From Bdellovibrionota bacterium (GTDB taxonomy: Bacteria; Bdellovibrionota_C; UBA2361; JBIKUX01), in NCBI GenBank assembly GCA_044347345.1, contig JBIKUX010000006.1, positions 1 through 64,000 on the forward strand: DNA of 64,000 bases. The letters are read 5' to 3'. Shown here in pieces: positions 6,001 to 12,000 of this stretch (its first letter is position 1; every line of letters begins with the position of its first letter). A program made the position numbers.

Positions 6001-9000
6001 TATATTCTTTAATTTTAGTAGCTTCTTCTACATCACCAATAGATTCTTTTAATGTTAAATCTAATGTAGTCGTAGGCACCTCACTCTGAGACTCAACACT
6101 ATAACTCCGTAAAACTCCTCCGACTGTATTCAGAGCTAAAACACGAGAAAGAGGCTTTAGTAAAATAGGTAGTGTTAAAAATGCATCGCAACCAAACTCT
6201 ATACATCGCTCAAGCTCAACTTGAGAGGGAGAACTAATGAGAGCTATGATGGGTGTTAACACCCCCATTTGTCGTAGTTGCTGAATAAATATTTTACCAC
6301 CCTCAAAAGACAGCTCTATATCTATGAATAAAAGGTCAAATTGCTTCTGATAAAGAGCTTGGCGCACTTCATCGCCTGTATGAGCCGAAGTAATATCGAG
6401 TTTGGTATGAGCAAGATATGAACGGAAGATCCTCTCATGAACTCGGTCTTTTATACCAATTAATACATTACCTGATAAACATCGATAAACCTCATCTAGA
6501 AGAGGATTCTTGTCAAAAATTGGGGGAATTTCCGGATTAACGAATTGTATCTCACCACTTCCAGGTATTTTTTTTGCTGGAATAGCTAACCTAGCTGTAG
6601 TACCTATATCTGGTATTGTTTCAATTAAGAACTCTCCACCGAGTGAACGAGCTACCCCAGAAATTACAGATAATCCTGTTCGTATAATACCATCATGTAG
6701 TAACACTTCCTCTATATGATCGCTTTTCTCAGGTATTACGCTAAACGATTTATTCGACTTTCTAAATATTGCTCCAGAACCAGTATCACAAGTACGAAGT
6801 ACTAAGATTTGTTGATTCTGGTCATAATCCACTCTAAGTTCTACTCGGCCATAAACGGTGCCAGACAGCGCATTGCATAAAATAGCTCGTAGTGCTTGGT
6901 GCAATTTAGCGCCATCAGAAACAATGCGTTTTGGAACAGGTCGGTCAAATCTAACAGCAAAATGTATTCCTTGTTGCTGAGCAATTTCAGCTATAGAACC
7001 TACAGATTCAAATATGATTCTTTCTAAATTTGTTATGCGTAATATAGCTGGTCGTCCTCCAGCTCCGTGCTCAACAGCCTCAGCAAGATCAGAAAACGTA
7101 TCCACGCAATAGTCGCTCTTAAACTGAATATGACGAAAAAATAACTGCCTATCACTCTCCGACAAAGCAAGATAATTTGATTCCTCTAATGTCGCCCTAA
7201 TAATTGTAGAGGCCCACCTAAGTTCTCTCTCAGCTCTTTTGACAATTGCTTTAAGAACAGGGTCAGAGCATGGCTGTAATAAACTACTACTTTTACTCTC
7301 TTTTGTTTCTAAAATAGATTTAAATGTCGGTTTATAAAAACGGCAAATTCCACTCAGAAAAGACACCAATTCAATAGGTTCAAAGGGTCTCACTAAAAAA
7401 AATATACCCGTTTCAGCTACAACAAAAGGATCTAGCTCACTAAGTTCCTCCTTACTAACTGTAACAAGAATCGGTAATGAGGTGCGCTCAACAATTGATC
7501 TGAGCTCATCAAGAGTTTGATTATCTAAGACATCATCAACGGGTCGAAACCAAAAAATACCTCTTAGATCAGAAGATTCAAGCTTGATAAAACTATCTGA
7601 TATCGAACTACAAAAAGAGAATTCAAATCCAAAACGTTCGCCAAACTCTAAAAAATATCTATCTAAATTAGGGTCATCTCTTACCACAAGAATGGTAAAA
7701 GAAAATGACTTAGCGGTAGTAATACTGGAATCCATTGTTGCCCTATAGCAGTTCTAGTACACCTTTGATACGACGAGCCAAAACTACTGGAGAAAGACGT
7801 TTTGAAAGAAGACTAGATGCCCCATTGTTCAGACAATCAAGCTCATTATCAATATCATCATCAATCGTTAACATTATAACTGGAATATCTCGGGTAACTT
7901 TGTGTTTTTTAATTCGTCCCAAAAATTCTTTACCTGTCATTTCAGGCATGGACATATCACACAAAATTAAATCAGGACCATATTCCACAGCTTTATTAAA
8001 ACCCTCTGCACCATTTTCTGCCTCAATTATTTCTATAAAGTCCTTTCCGAGAAGCGCAGATACCATTTTACGAACACTTTCACTATCATCCACAAGCAAT
8101 ACGGCCTTTTTTTTGCCCTTAGCTTCTTTTTTCATCTCTGGAATTACTACTGACTCTACCGTAAGCTTTTCTGCTACAACCGCAGATACTGTAAACCTTT
8201 CTGATTCCGTACGTTCAACCGAAATATCACTAAAATTTCCGTCTATTGGCGCCATAGATATACTCTTTGTAGGGATGACTATTTCTCTTCCATCCAAGGG
8301 TCGGCGTAGATTATACTTTTGACCTAAAGAACCCTCTCCACCTAAGACAACATTAACTCCGCTAAACACTCGACTAGAGGATGCTCCTTCTCCATCCTTA
8401 CCGCGCTGAAGTGAATCTAGTTCAAGATAGGGTAGTAATTCGTCAATTGTTGTTTTCCCCTCACATAAATGATCAATCCCTGCCTCCTCGATTGTTCTGT
8501 AGCCGTTATCTCTTGCTACAGCCAATAATTGCTCGTGAGACGCTCCAAGAGCTATCATCTCTGCTACATCATCGATAACATGTAGGTAGCTATACAAACC
8601 TAACCTTCCCTTGTATCCAGTAAATGAACATCTCTCGCAACCAGCTCCCTTTTGAAAATTTGGAGATTCAACTTTATGATCTTTTATAATATTGTGTAAC
8701 TTCTCAATATCTGCCGCTGGTAGTGGCTCAGAACAAAACTCGCAGATCCTTCGAACCAAACGTTGTGCAATAATTCCTATTAAAGCCTGGGAAAAAACAG
8801 TCGGATCACCACCAAGTTGAGATAATCTAGTTACAGCTGACAAAGCATCGTTTGTATGAACTGTAGATAAAACCAAGTGACCAGTTTGTGCTGCCTGAAG
8901 CGTAGTTTTTAGAGTATCCTCATCGCGTATCTCTCCCACCATAATCACATCGGGATCTTGTCTCAAGATGGATCTTAGGGCAGAGGCGAATGTTACTCCT

Positions 9001-12000
9001 GCTGTATTATTAACTTGAATCTGATTTATTCCCTTAAACCGATACTCAACGGGGTCTTCAATAGTTGTAATGTTATGCCTCCCGTCATTTAAATGATTGA
9101 GTGCTACATATAGGGTAGTAGTCTTTCCAGAACCAGTTGGGCCAGTAACCAGAAACATCTTACCCTTTTTTGTTAGACCCTCGCGAAATCTCTTCTCAAC
9201 TTGGCTAGGCAATCCTAACTTACTTAAGTCACTACTTAATATTGCACCTCCAAGTACTCGAAGAACCAATTTTTCACCGTAAGACGTCGGAACACTCGAT
9301 ACACGAAGGTCAATATCTTTCTTTGCAATAAGAACACGCATACGGCCATCTTGAGGTTTGCGCCGTTCTGATAAATTCATTCTTGCTAGAACTTTAATAC
9401 GAGAAACAACATGAGATTGTAGCTTTTGGGGAATAGCAATTATATCTTGTAAGATTCCATCAATTCGGAATCGTACAAGCATGCTCTTTTGACCAGGCTC
9501 CATATGAATATCACTGGCTCCAAGATTCACCGCATCTACAAGAATCTTATTAGCCAACCTTATAATAGGCGGTTCTACAGAGGATTGATCCTTAAAATTA
9601 TCACCCTCCGAATTGATAGATACCAGCTCAATAACTTCCTCAGTCTCGTCAACCTTTAATGGATCAAATTCCTGCTGAGATAGATACTTTGTTAAAAGTC
9701 TAAGAATCTTCGTTTCTTCCGCTATAACGACTTTTATTTGTCGACCCAAAATAAACTCAAGGCTCTTTATATTTTCTATTTCACATGGATTAGCAGTTGC
9801 TACTAGTACTGAAGCTCCGTCATGAAAAAGCGGTATCAGTCGATTATTCCAACAAATTGAGCGCATAGCTGGACTTACAAAGTCTTTACATTGCAATTTA
9901 CTTATTGTTTCACTTGAATCAAGATCAACATATGCAGTATTTGTAGTTTTTGCTACAGCATCAATTGCTGCTTTCTCCGAAACTAAGCCTGCCTTTACAA
10001 GCAACCTTATTGGGCCTTCATTGTTGCTTGAATCGGGAATACTCTCTGGCTCAGAAGCTAAAAGTCCGTTTTCAATTAAAATTTTTGTAACCAGTCTTAT
10101 CCCTTTCATCCCCGTTGTAGCTCCTATAGAACTGGGTCAAAAAATTTCACTATTAGCAAGAGCTTCGTCATACGCCCGAAATTGCTAAATAGGTTACTAT
10201 AGGATGAAAAGTGCCCCTTAACCTCTATACTAAAATAGCCGAATTCCTTATTAACAGTTTATAAAGGGAAAATGGCAAAAAAAAAATCTTCTTCCGGACG
10301 GCAATCTACCAACCTTCTTGTTACTGCTGTATCTATTCTACTTGTGAATGCTATCTTAGCCGGTATTATGAAATCAGTTAATAAGATTTCTGCAGATGCG
10401 GATTGTCAGAAAACGCTATCAAATATTTTAGAAAACCTTCCAGCTGTTAATGACCAAACACAAGACAACTCAAACGTTGTAATCTTAAATGCTAAAGGTC
10501 CAGCTAATCTAGATCGTCCTTTTGACCAAATAGATATCCCAAAAGGAGTAAGAGTATCACTTTTCTATCATCGTCGCTCATCTTTGGCAGGATTGCCGGT
10601 ACAACTGTCTCGAATTGAAGTAAGTCATTCTAGTACAAAGAGAATCTTCAGATATCTATCAGTAAATTCGATTAGCCTTAATCAAATTATTGATGAGTCA
10701 TCACAGAATTCATAGGTTGTTTAAAAGGAAGCTAAGTGGAACAGCCTTCATCTTTGATGCATAGCACCCAAAACGAGAACAAGGAAGATTCCGAATTTTC
10801 TCTATCCGCAATCACCGTTGCTAATTCTCACTTTGATCCAAGTGCTTTAATAAACAAACACGAATACTATGAACTTATGCGAGCCGCATTAGCGGAGGCA
10901 GAGCTTGAACTACAAAAAGAACTTAATACAAATAAAACTACTTCAAAAAAATTTTCTAGTCAGTCAAACGTTTCGCCACAGAGTAAAAATAAAATAATTC
11001 TTTTAGCTACGCTCTCTATTCTTGCTATCATAACTAATGCTGCATCTCAGTTTCTTATAGAAGAAGGTCAAAACAGCGTCGCTGCCAGAAGACAGATTGA
11101 AGAGACTTTTACCCATGAATCATCGCTTATCTACGCTACCGACTTTCTTTTTTCTAAGACAATCGCTAATCCAAATTCAGAAATTTTTCATAAAAACTTA
11201 GAGGATTTAAACCAAATTTTTGATTATAGGGTTCAGCACATTAAAAAATTAGCACATTTTAATATACAGGGTTTTAAAAACCTGGGTGAAAAAATCGTTT
11301 ATGAAAAGCAACTCGTCAAAAATGTTAATCCTGACCTAAAAAATAATAGCTCTGCCAATGAATTAGAAAATAATGAGAGTCAATTAAGTGATCCATTATA
11401 AAATTGGTTTAATATCAATTATATTAAATACTTAATTTTATTTTTATTACAATGAATTTTTGTTTTTCTTTCCTTTTATTGTGCGTCTACTGTGTAGAAA
11501 TTTCATGATTACTGCGGATCCAAGGAATTTGCTCCGGCTTTTGGGCAGTAAAAGAGTTTAGAGGAAGTGCTGTAAAGCTTGCTACACCAGAATTACCAAA
11601 ACCATTACGGCTATTTCCAAAAATTGAAGGGGAGCTCAAAGCTGAATGAGAAAAAAGAAGACGTAAACGAGATCCACCTGCAGTTACAACAAACGGTGAA
11701 TAAGCGAGACCAACTGATCCAAGTCTTATCATCCCTACTTGAATAACGTGATTACCACCAATTCTAACATCATTTTCAGACAACTCTCCAAACGGAGCAT
11801 TAAGATCAAACAAAGGCGCAGCTATACCTTGCTGTACAGCAGTAGTTATATTTGTTGCACCATCTGGTAAGGCTCCATTCACGAAAATTCCTGCCTCTGG
11901 TTTACTTGAATCAATTAGTACACCAGCTCCAGAGCGAGCATCAAAAGGTAATAAAAAGGCTTCAAGCTCGGCACCAACACATCGGTTATCTGGAGGAGCA

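Follow-up and report, generated by a model that had tools for sequence, protein, structure and literature searches.

Receivers that act on type IV pilus motors have been described in several bacteria. In Synechocystis, phosphorylated PixG binds PilB1 (PMC11181946), and in Xanthomonas campestris DrdR binds both PilB and PilT, raising their ATPase activity (PMC13507683). PixG receives its input from the chemotaxis-type kinase PixL (PMC11181946), and PilG/PilH of Pseudomonas receive theirs from ChpA, a kinase of the same type (PMC11656802). The receiver (REC) domain of FimX is devoid of the acceptor Asp (PMC11656802). The MshEN domain is also found together with REC domains (PMC5013675). The locus described here lies in a window of 64,000 nt, i.e., the whole stretch of DNA that was analysed, and encodes a PilB-like ATPase with a receiver of its own.

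The ATPase-receiver fusion protein

The fusion gene and its parts are as follows.

7743..10109, minus strand: PilB-like ATPase with C-terminal receiver, 788 aa (P0001; ORF map, translation, Pfam, NCBIfam)
9669..10109, minus strand: fusion residues 1-147, N-terminal MshEN-like regulatory domain (Pfam and AF2 model)
8436..9572, minus strand: fusion residues 180-558, ATPase core (Pfam T2SSE, motifs, solved relatives, Foldseek)
8118..8417, minus strand: fusion residues 565-664, disordered linker (AF2 pLDDT, alignment)
7746..8108, minus strand: fusion residues 668-788, receiver domain (Pfam, PleD REC1 alignment, AF2 model)

Translation of 7743..10109 on the minus strand gives an ORF starting with ATG, and Pfam recovers in it the three domains reported in the survey's finding: MshEN at residues 83-147 (46.1 bits), T2SSE at residues 180-558 (417.3 bits, E 5.5e-125) and Response_reg at residues 670-781 (PF00072; 84.9 bits, cut-off 30.2). 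In the AF2 model, the N-terminal region is folded over residues 1-145. The ATPase core carries Walker A (323-331), the Asp box (349-356), Walker B (385-396), the His box (409-421) and a four-Cys zinc site (C456, C459, C491 and C494); none of these motif columns, the four Cys included, varies among 33 aligned family members. The linker of about 100 residues, whose pLDDT is below 50 over residues 565-603 and 605-664, is longer than in most relatives and stands out as an insertion in the family alignment. The receiver is modelled as five beta-alpha units (pLDDT about 94), and its best match is the REC1 domain of PleD (85.8 bits), with whose acidic pair, acceptor Asp, Thr and Lys it aligns D674, D675, D718, T748 and K770, respectively. 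The catalytic set is thus complete, as the survey had read it, and is conserved among 190 other ATPase-then-REC proteins (D/E674 in 187, D675 in 188, D718 in 185, T/S748 in 189 and K770 in 183). The receiver is canonical and, judged from its residues, looks phosphorylatable.

The ATPase itself scores 527.4 bits with the NCBIfam PilB model (TIGR02538; cut-off 675.65), in agreement with the 527 bits given previously, and 505.8 bits with the GspE model (TIGR02533; cut-off 630.25). Its best solved relative is PilB of Geobacter (6olj/5tsg; 399 bits), which matches the whole of residues 11-560 including the N-terminus, whereas GspE matches the core only; Foldseek gives TM values of 0.92-0.93 for the core against PilF and PilB. 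The reading as a PilB/GspE-family, extension-type ATPase is supported. The same genome encodes a canonical PilB on contig C5 (776.8 bits), adjoining pilC, and a bona fide GspE on contig C26 (672.7 bits, cut-off 630.25). A GspE role for the fusion, previously left open, is unlikely because this bona fide GspE sits between gspD and gspF. An MshE-type, c-di-GMP-dependent role had been left open as well and is also unlikely, since the binding motif is absent: the relaxed form of the 24-residue motif, taken from the methods of PMC5013675 and applied with a criterion of two copies, occurs 0 times in the first 160 residues. Of 114 fusions, 72 lack the motif, 22 carry a single copy and 20 carry two copies; the distant family members L206 and L208, used as controls, keep two copies.

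Distribution of the fusion

The survey had regarded the architecture as rare, having found all three domains in only 2 of the 120 best matches to residues 520-788. This count, which is not reproducible here, came from a query in which the receiver domain, a very abundant one, predominates. When whole-protein matches were re-scored with HMMs, 114 of the best 120 carried the ATPase followed by REC (PF00437+PF00072) and 113 carried all three families (PF05157+PF00437+PF00072). When representatives of clusters at 50% identity were considered, at least 87 of the best 150 had the same order, and so did 17 of 19 scanned loci of same-order relatives, corresponding to 15 of 17 sampled genomes. PF00437+PF00072 are also listed for most (no exact tally) of the top 120 matches to protein P0010. 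The ATPase-receiver fusion is a large, widespread family, and these counts contradict the idea of a rare, near-unique architecture.

In a tree, 132 of 133 fusions group in a single 136-leaf clade (SH-like support 95) that leaves out the canonical PilB and GspE of the genome, and the fusion label requires 5 changes, versus 70.9 for shuffled labels, in a sample biased by its composition, as the fusions were the best matches to this fusion protein whereas a generic scan supplied the plain ATPases. Within this sampled tree, the fusions are one clade. A literature search found no study of the family, a variant that is common yet uncharacterised.

Neighbouring genes here and in relatives

The fusion gene is the first of a four-gene cluster (fusion, P0002, kinase, regulator; gaps of 7, 35 and 29 nt), with pilus-type genes upstream.

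5195..7735, minus strand: degenerate hybrid kinase / phosphotransfer protein, 846 aa (P0002; Pfam, NCBIfam, orthologue alignment, AF2)
3921..5159, minus strand: membrane histidine kinase, 412 aa, six TM helices, HisKA, HATPase_c (Pfam, NCBIfam)
3349..3891, minus strand: response regulator, 180 aa, receiver and Fis-type HTH (Pfam, NCBIfam)
11487..14414, minus strand: PilY1-like protein, 975 aa (T4P_PilY1, 36.2 bits, cut-off 28.1)
14447..16750, minus strand: four minor-pilin-like genes with prepilin-type N-termini (N-terminal sequences)

P0002, whose gene starts 7 nt past the stop of the fusion gene on the same strand, had been described as a REC-Hpt protein. Both domains are indeed found by Pfam (REC at residues 432-524, 37.4 bits; Hpt, PF01627, at residues 755-813, 36 bits versus a cut-off of 24.6), but the description can be refined. 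At the N-terminus, a REC-like region is followed by a DHp-like pair of helices that lacks the His and by an ATP-binding domain that is partly degenerate; then come a degenerate receiver, a His-less Hpt-like bundle and finally the Hpt with His786. The AF2 model used here is of low confidence and contributed its secondary-structure pattern alone. The H-box His is replaced (AERELRW at 168-174, where the L104 and L102 orthologues have SHELRTPL), and Pfam HisKA was not detected in the protein. The receiver keeps D472, while its acidic pair (LIGIKDRV) and Lys (FLTLPI) are lost. His786 (IAHECAGV) aligns with the His of the corresponding L101 protein, and residues 237-578 align with ArcB, TorS and RcsD, at scores such as 74 bits for ArcB (NCBIfam cut-off 838). 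P0002 is a degenerate unorthodox hybrid kinase in which the Hpt His786 alone appears intact. Only three Hpt domains were found genome-wide.

The kinase gene starts 35 nt past the P0002 gene, on the same strand. Its product, previously called PilS-like, does match 6TM_PilS (36.5 bits), HATPase_c (53.4 bits) and HisKA (22.3 bits) in Pfam, but scores better as an ActS/PrrB/RegB-like kinase (170.8 bits, under the NCBIfam cut-off of 350). The partner regulator (Response_reg 69.6 bits, HTH_8 45 bits, no sigma-54 module in Pfam) is, by its ActR/PrrA/RegA score of 153.7 bits (under the NCBIfam cut-off of 250), RegA/ActR-like. The REC-Hpt protein, the kinase and the PilY1-like protein all lie where the survey placed them (5195-7735, 3921-5159 and 11487-14414, all on the minus strand). 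The pilY1-like gene is upstream of the fusion on the same strand, with two plus-strand ORFs at 10272-11401 intervening, and the two genes are not co-transcribed. The minor-pilin-like genes have weak GspH, GspI and N_methyl matches. The window contains no pilC, pilT or pilMNOPQ, next to the fusion or elsewhere.

In two distant lineages, the fusion has an Hpt-bearing gene as its neighbour. The close relatives L104 and L102 encode an intact hybrid kinase (HisKA, HATPase_c, REC and Hpt) in the next gene downstream, and in a third, L101, that place is taken by an Hpt protein similar to P0002 in its degeneration. A stand-alone Hpt gene of 110-112 aa is directly upstream of the fusion in six of the nine Desulfobacterota loci that have an upstream flank; the Desulfoluna loci L206 and L217 do not have it. 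Among 20 fetched loci of same-order relatives, only three have an Hpt neighbour, which is missing for instance from L103 (46% identity), and most paralogues are surrounded by housekeeping genes. Pilus-type genes were seen as well: T2SSF in L102, TadE/Tad in L103 and L106, and pilin-like genes in L010 and L206. A split arrangement, in which a REC gene adjoins pilB, occurs in L039 (Omnitrophota) and in L207 (Methylomirabilota), where the PilB gene is followed by the separate REC gene within a pilM, pilO cluster. The kinase-regulator pair of the window was not found by tblastn beside the fusion in any of 20 relatives' loci.

A candidate phospho-switch on the motor

We consider it probable, with moderate confidence, that the fusion is an accessory extension ATPase of the PilB type, with an Hpt-to-REC phosphorelay as its switch. 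The phospho-control of the motor proposed by the survey is best supported in this form, i.e., via the adjacent Hpt protein, an Hpt gene adjoining the fusion in two distant lineages. The fusion would supplement the canonical PilB of the genome, with the receiver on its flexible linker of about 100 residues acting as a built-in switch: phosphorylation of D718 may alter receiver contacts with the ATPase or with partners, which would turn ATP-driven pilin polymerisation or engagement of the pilus platform on or off. The most likely phosphoryl donor to D718 would be His786 in the Hpt of the co-transcribed P0002. As P0002 is presumably no longer able to autophosphorylate, its Hpt would need another kinase and could be charged by the co-transcribed membrane kinase via a receiver intermediate, or by an unlinked hybrid kinase. 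Since the MshEN-like domain of the fusion clade appears to have lost the c-di-GMP motif, phosphorylation rather than c-di-GMP would be the main input.

Complex prediction for the REC (662-788) and the Hpt (735-846) weakly supports this pairing, with a score of 0.55 versus 0.00 for the best of three controls; at least 97% of contacts agree between runs and partner pLDDT is at least 84. Of 157 solved complexes, 116 reach the mark applied, as do 2 of 215 mismatched pairs; among those that reach it with 0.60 or less are only 18 of the 157 solved complexes but both mismatches. Solved REC-Hpt complexes exist, and the pass may reflect likeness only. With the H-box His of P0002 lost, and neither the acidic pair nor the Lys left in its receiver, the relay could also be decaying.

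An unlikely alternative is that the receiver on the ATPase is a relay intermediate or sink rather than the end-point, in a Spo0F/Spo0B-like scheme that would couple motor state to transcription, from the kinase (3921-5159) to the PilB receiver, the P0002 Hpt and the REC-HTH regulator (3349-3891). The tightly spaced cluster does contain exactly one kinase, one Hpt with its His and two canonical receivers, of which P0001 carries one and the 180-aa regulator the other; P0002 is apparently unable to autophosphorylate, and Hpt domains are scarce in the genome. However, kinases and regulators encoded side by side usually form cognate pairs, tblastn found this pair beside the fusion in none of the 20 relatives' loci, and in L104 the fusion would be the natural end-point because it is followed by a self-sufficient H1-D1-H2 kinase with no additional regulator. 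It is rather improbable that the ATPase powers some machine besides the type IVa pilus, for example a type II secretion-like system or another type IV filament, the pilus neighbours then being coincidental. The nearly equal PilB and GspE scores, both under cut-off (527.4 and 505.8 bits), the lack of pilC within the window, the TadE/Tad-like genes of L103 and L106 and the separation of the fusion clade from canonical PilB would fit such a role; the existence of a dedicated GspE, the whole-length match to solved PilB, the PilY1 and minor-pilin genes upstream and the split PilB and REC genes of L207 speak against it. Finally, the receiver could be a FimX-like, phosphorylation-independent module for interaction or localisation, which would make the Hpt neighbour irrelevant. 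Pseudo-receivers are known in pilus regulation, FimX being described as lacking the acceptor Asp (PMC11656802), and P0002 itself carries degenerate receivers, but with all five catalytic positions present here and conserved across the family (183-189 of 190 members), and with Hpt genes recurring next to the fusion in two lineages, this is quite improbable.

The proposed phospho-switch can be set against several known systems. With type IVa PilB (5tsg/5tsh/6olj of G. metallireducens, 5zfr of G. sulfurreducens and Thermus PilF 5oiu), the fusion shares the MshEN-type N-terminus, the N2 and C-terminal ATPase core, the Walker A/B motifs, the Asp/His boxes and the four-Cys site; it differs by the additional linker of about 100 residues and the receiver, and by belonging to a clade that leaves out the canonical PilB of its own genome (776.8 bits). 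P0002 has the order of kinase-like core, receiver and Hpt in common with the unorthodox hybrid kinases ArcB, TorS and BarA and with the RcsC-RcsD-RcsB relay. RcsD has an intact Hpt but no phospho-accepting His in its kinase-like part. P0002 nonetheless scores far under the NCBIfam cut-offs for these proteins, no membrane or periplasmic part is seen in it, only one of its two Hpt-like bundles has a His, and at its locus the relay would presumably end on a motor ATPase instead of a transcription factor.

NtrC-type receiver-AAA+ activators resemble the proposed switch in having a ring ATPase whose assembly or activity is controlled by a receiver fused to it in cis. Their receiver is N-terminal on a short linker, their output is transcription, and the ATPase superfamily of the fusion is unrelated. 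Vibrio cholerae MshE, a c-di-GMP-controlled ATPase, has an N-terminal domain of the same Pfam family on a T2SSE ATPase, whereas the fusion is devoid of the 24-residue motif described in PMC5013675 and its probable input is phosphorylation of the C-terminal receiver. As in PixG/PixH (PMC11181946), DrdR (PMC13507683) and PilG/PilH (PMC11656802), a phosphorylatable receiver is proposed to control an extension motor; those receivers are separate proteins, whereas motor and receiver are parts of a single protein in the fusion, and in place of the chemotaxis-type kinases that feed PixG and PilG/PilH, the neighbour of the fusion is an Hpt carrier.

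A PilB-like ATPase with its own receiver

The gene of P0001, the PilB-like ATPase with a C-terminal receiver (REC), is real and well-formed, and the survey's description of its product (MshEN, ATPase core, complete receiver) is correct, with Pfam domains, motifs, receiver residues, an AlphaFold2 model and Foldseek in agreement:

7743-10109, minus strand: P0001 gene, 788 aa, ATG start (open reading frame and translation)
P0001 residues 83-147: MshEN (Pfam, 46.1 bits)
P0001 residues 180-558: T2SSE (Pfam, 417.3 bits)
P0001 residues 670-781: Response_reg (Pfam, 84.9 bits)
P0001 residues 323-331, 349-356, 385-396 and 409-421: Walker A, Asp box, Walker B and His box
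P0001 C456, C459, C491 and C494: four cysteines

The ATPase motifs and the four cysteines are invariant across 33 aligned members of the fusion family, i.e., proteins with an ATPase followed by a receiver. The receiver has D674, D675, the predicted phospho-acceptor D718, T748 and K770, and its best alignment partner is REC1 of PleD (85.8 bits). In the AlphaFold2 model, built from a 33-row alignment (mean pLDDT 81.7), the N-terminal domain is folded, the ATPase core exceeds a pLDDT of 90, residues 565-664 are disordered and the receiver forms five beta-alpha units (pLDDT about 94). Thermus PilF and Geobacter PilB take the top Foldseek ranks (target-normalised TM 0.92-0.93), and sequence comparison matches solved PilB proteins to residues 11-560 at 399 bits and GspE/EpsE to the core only, at about 343 bits. 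All NCBIfam scores fall below their cut-offs: PilB 527.4 (675.65), GspE 505.8 (630.25) and TfpB 435.3 (850) bits.

The genome (2.53 Mb, 68 contigs) holds 13 T2SSE matches, 10 of them above the cut-off, and encodes elsewhere:

Contig C5: canonical PilB, 776.8 bits, adjoining PilC
Contig C26: canonical GspE, 672.7 bits, between GspD and GspF
Contig C49, 58048-59229 (locus L004, 1477-3861, minus strand): 794-aa PilB-like paralogue with N-terminal GAF (36.3 bits), MshEN and T2SSE

The P0001 gene is therefore an extra, accessory paralogue, so that one cell has extension-type ATPases of three kinds: plain, REC-fused and GAF-fused. In a Nitrospirae MAG (L219), too, GAF, MshEN and T2SSE are joined in one gene, with REC and Hpt genes after it.

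Distribution and descent of the fusion

The survey had called the architecture rare, a view contradicted by three samples. A whole-protein search with P0001 over 5.8 billion clustered proteins returned PF00437 together with PF00072 in 114 of the best 120 matches and all three families in 113, the six without PF00072 being P0026, P0031, P0041, P0042, P0053 and P0093; our own HMMs, made from the alignment, gave the same 114, every one with the ATPase before the receiver. When residues 430-788 were searched against 1.84 billion 50%-identity representatives, the best 150 comprised 87 proteins with ATPase then REC (21 of them fragments below 690 aa, the window's own protein included), 62 with REC only and one with another order; because the receiver adds score and enriches fusions, both top lists show large absolute numbers and not a fraction of all PilB-like proteins. 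Among 40 relatives, all from other families of the same order, many have PilB-like open frames of 700-770 aa. Twenty PilB-like loci were fetched from 17 of these genomes, and T2SSE and Response_reg share one open reading frame in 17 of the 19 scanned (L117, cut by a contig end, falls outside the 19), the exceptions being L101, with the receiver in another frame, and L105, with none. A rarity estimate from a receiver-dominated fragment query is thus, as a practical lesson, unreliable.

At L101 (8781-10978 on contig C24 of G017), the orthologue in the closest relative, the ATPase frame stops at 667 aa, owing either to a frameshift or to faulty assembly; public sets list the protein as P0031, without PF00072. 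A locus scan with a Walker-type pattern from the alignment proved of little use, yielding mostly plain PilB/GspE and reaching a receiver in only 3 of the 80 matches listed: a true fusion (L010), separate REC and PilB genes (L039) and an open reading frame that as called lacks REC (L063). At L039 (9542-13905, Omnitrophota MAG), the pairing is split: pilB, pilC and a pilin gene follow a stand-alone REC gene and precede a second one; another split version occurs at L207 (594-5336, Methylomirabilota MAG), where a PilB gene and then a 138-aa REC gene follow pilM and pilO. In a 985-aa family member at L226 (6716-9673, Planctomycetota MAG), ATPase and receiver are separated by an inserted double zinc ribbon (DZR, 33.6 bits).

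Sources named among the fusion matches to P0001 and to the further query P0010 include Bdellovibrionales, Oligoflexia, Deltaproteobacteria, Thermodesulfobacteriota, Desulfatibacillaceae, Desulfoluna spongiiphila, Acidobacteria and Polarisedimenticolia, and the nearest named ones, among the matches listed, are MAGs labelled Bdellovibrionales or Oligoflexia. Many of the top ProRS matches (about 60% identity) bear the same labels, and the organism probably belongs to Bdellovibrionota. One cultured carrier was found, Desulfoluna spongiiphila AA1; poorly studied lineages with a predatory or surface-associated way of life often carry the family. P0001 belongs to a widespread, annotated and apparently unstudied subfamily: a full-text literature search, largely of journals outside subscription, found no paper on a PilB/GspE-receiver fusion, and a recent review of PilB control (PMC11656802) has zero occurrences of 'receiver'.

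A FastTree phylogeny of the ATPase core (224 rows: 133 fusions and 91 plain proteins, the latter mostly from the generic pattern scan plus the genome's paralogues) places 132 of the 133 fusions in a single clade of 136 leaves with SH-like support of 95, and the fusion label changes 5 times on the tree versus a mean of 70.9 with shuffled labels. The genome's PilB, GspE and GAF paralogue fall outside this clade; the four plain rows within it are L101_o2, P0031, P0093 and L105_o2, and the first two apparently represent one frameshifted gene. Given the biased sampling and quick method, a single origin of the fusions is likely rather than proven.

Across 190 other fusions, collected from the whole-protein and 50%-identity searches, the receiver residues are almost always retained (D/E674 in 187, D675 in 188, D718 in 185, T/S748 in 189 and K770 in 183), and this speaks for a phospho-acceptor that works throughout the family. 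The c-di-GMP motif, in the relaxed 24-residue form described in the methods of PMC5013675, has zero copies in P0001, and among 114 fusions it is absent in 72, single in 22 and double in 20; both copies are present in the Desulfoluna and L208 proteins, and one in the genome's canonical PilB. The window's branch has thus probably lost c-di-GMP binding, as far as the motif can tell. PMC5013675 reports REC among the partners of MshEN and names Bd2402 of Bdellovibrio bacteriovorus as a c-di-GMP-binding response regulator with MshEN; no match named B. bacteriovorus occurs among the best 120 to P0001 or to P0010.

Phosphotransfer genes beside the fusion

The P0001 gene is followed by three genes on the same strand, and pilus-related genes lie upstream:

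5195-7735, minus strand: P0002, 846 aa, starting 7 nt past the P0001 stop codon
3921-5159, minus strand: kinase, 412 aa, 35 nt after P0002; PilS-type six-helix membrane domain, HisKA and HATPase_c (Pfam)
3349-3891, minus strand: regulator, 180 aa, 29 nt after the kinase; receiver and Fis-type HTH
11487-14414: PilY1-like gene, upstream of the P0001 gene
14447-16750: four genes with prepilin-type N-termini, upstream of the P0001 gene
P0002 residues 432-524: weak receiver (Pfam, 37.4 bits)
P0002 residues 755-813: Hpt (Pfam, 36 bits)

The top NCBIfam models are RegB/ActS for the kinase (170.8 bits, below the cut-off of 350) and RegA/ActR for the regulator (153.7 bits, below 250), in which Pfam and NCBIfam found no sigma-54 module. 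The PilY1-like and four prepilin-type genes do not form one transcript with P0001, because two plus-strand open reading frames (10272-11401) intervene. A promoter and terminator scan of 3000-11600 gave 15 and 2 sites, fewer than the 24.1 and 5.8 in shuffled sequence. A second four-gene minor-pilin-like set with prepilin-type N-termini lies at 61036-63442 (minus strand; N_methyl, 29.8 bits, at 62921-63442), with no PilY1 gene seen beside it within the window.

The contig has other features of note. An RPA/RepA-type replication initiator (513 aa, PF10134, 70.6 bits; 21092-22633, minus strand), the only RPA gene in the genome, adjoins parA (23147-23953) and parB (23946-24809); the cumulative GC skew reaches its minimum at about 20-24 kb, where gene orientation flips, and dnaA is on another contig (C57). 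As it also carries TrpRS, ProRS, LpxK, KdtA, FlhA and flagellins, the contig is possibly a chromid, a second replicon bearing essential genes. Next to kdtA and lpxK, LpxB (lipid-A-disaccharide synthase, 230.8 bits) and an MsbA-like ABC exporter (ABC_membrane and ABC_tran) are fused in a single 1077-aa open reading frame (52328-55561, minus strand).

Hpt genes recur beside the fusion. They do so at 3 of the 20 loci of the same-order relatives, which are among the closest to P0001 (45-47% identity): at L104, the fusion is directly followed by a 976-aa protein with HisKA, HATPase_c, two REC and Hpt; at L102, by a 1397-aa protein with HisKA, HATPase_c, three REC and two Hpt, while upstream lie a stand-alone REC gene and, beyond it, a divergent T2SSF (PilC-like) gene; at L101, by a 761-aa Hpt protein and then a stand-alone REC. 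No Hpt neighbour is present at L103 (46% identity), and the other paralogues among the 20 loci sit among unrelated genes. In a second, independent set of loci, started from the Desulfoluna spongiiphila protein P0111, a stand-alone Hpt gene of 110-112 aa lies immediately upstream of the fusion at 6 of the 9 loci having an upstream flank (L208 and L216 by Pfam; L211, L212, L214 and L218 by tblastn); it is absent in L206 (Desulfoluna spongiiphila AA1) and L217 (also Desulfoluna), and L209 has only a weak tblastn match 4 kb away.

NCBIfam matches P0002 residues 237-578 to ArcB, TorS and RcsD, in the parts that bind ATP and form the receiver. Aligned with the genes downstream of the fusion at L101, L102 and L104, P0002 has AERELRW (168-174) in place of the SHELRTPL of L104 and L102, so that the phospho-accepting His is replaced; it keeps the N-box Asn288 and a G1 box (DTGSG), with a degenerate G2 box, and its receiver retains D472 but no longer has the acidic pair or the Lys. 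Of its two Hpt-like bundles, only the second contains a His (His786), versus the first in L104 and L102; the 761-aa L101 protein is degenerate in the same manner. With these catalytic losses, P0002 looks like a pseudo-kinase phosphotransfer protein, presumably of the RcsD kind. From its AlphaFold2 model (mean pLDDT 56.8, i.e., low), only the secondary-structure pattern was used, which fits the domain order. A word-based homologue search found no close relatives, returning P0002 itself and two weak matches, and its relatives are known solely through synteny. Its Hpt tail was found in 9 of the 40 relatives, with contigs in G021 and G033 too short to judge adjacency; only three Hpt domains were found in the whole genome.

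A candidate phosphorelay to the pilus motor

A complex predicted for the P0001 receiver and the P0002 Hpt scored 0.55 (best of three controls, 0.00), with runs agreeing in at least 97% of contacts and a partner pLDDT of at least 84; of 157 solved complexes, 116 attain this mark, as do 2 of 215 mismatched pairs, and at 0.60 or under it is attained by only 18 of the 157 and by both mismatches. The prediction weakly suggests that the two domains dock, and it may reflect likeness only, because REC-Hpt complexes are solved.

In the type IV pilus system, P0001 would be an accessory extension ATPase that is gated in cis when D718 is phosphorylated, and the Hpt of the co-transcribed P0002 would deliver the phosphate. 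This phosphorelay is plausible. In its main rival, the P0001 receiver would stand midway, with phosphate coming from the co-transcribed kinase and going on to the REC-HTH regulator, a four-step relay for which the gene cluster holds exactly the parts. If P0001 is instead the endpoint, a broader scheme can be put forward, tentatively and with somewhat more doubt than confidence: Hpt-based phosphorelays would end directly at the whole clade of pilus extension motors, in Bdellovibrionota-like bacteria, Desulfobacterota and beyond; in the window's branch, phospho-input would have replaced the ancestral MshEN c-di-GMP input, with the relay here fed via an RcsD-like pseudo-kinase; and the pilus machinery of the cell would be served by three extension ATPases, plain PilB, REC-PilB and GAF-PilB, that differ in their gating.

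Were gating in cis true, phospho-gating of a PilB hexamer could be studied in a minimal system, reconstitutable in vitro, made up of a motor that carries its own receiver and a conserved Hpt partner. Switching of type IV pili between extension and rest is known mostly via trans-acting factors, such as c-di-GMP adaptors and CheY-like proteins, and two papers offer precedents in trans: phosphorylated PixG binds PilB1 (PMC11181946), and DrdR stimulates the ATPase activity of PilB and PilT (PMC13507683).
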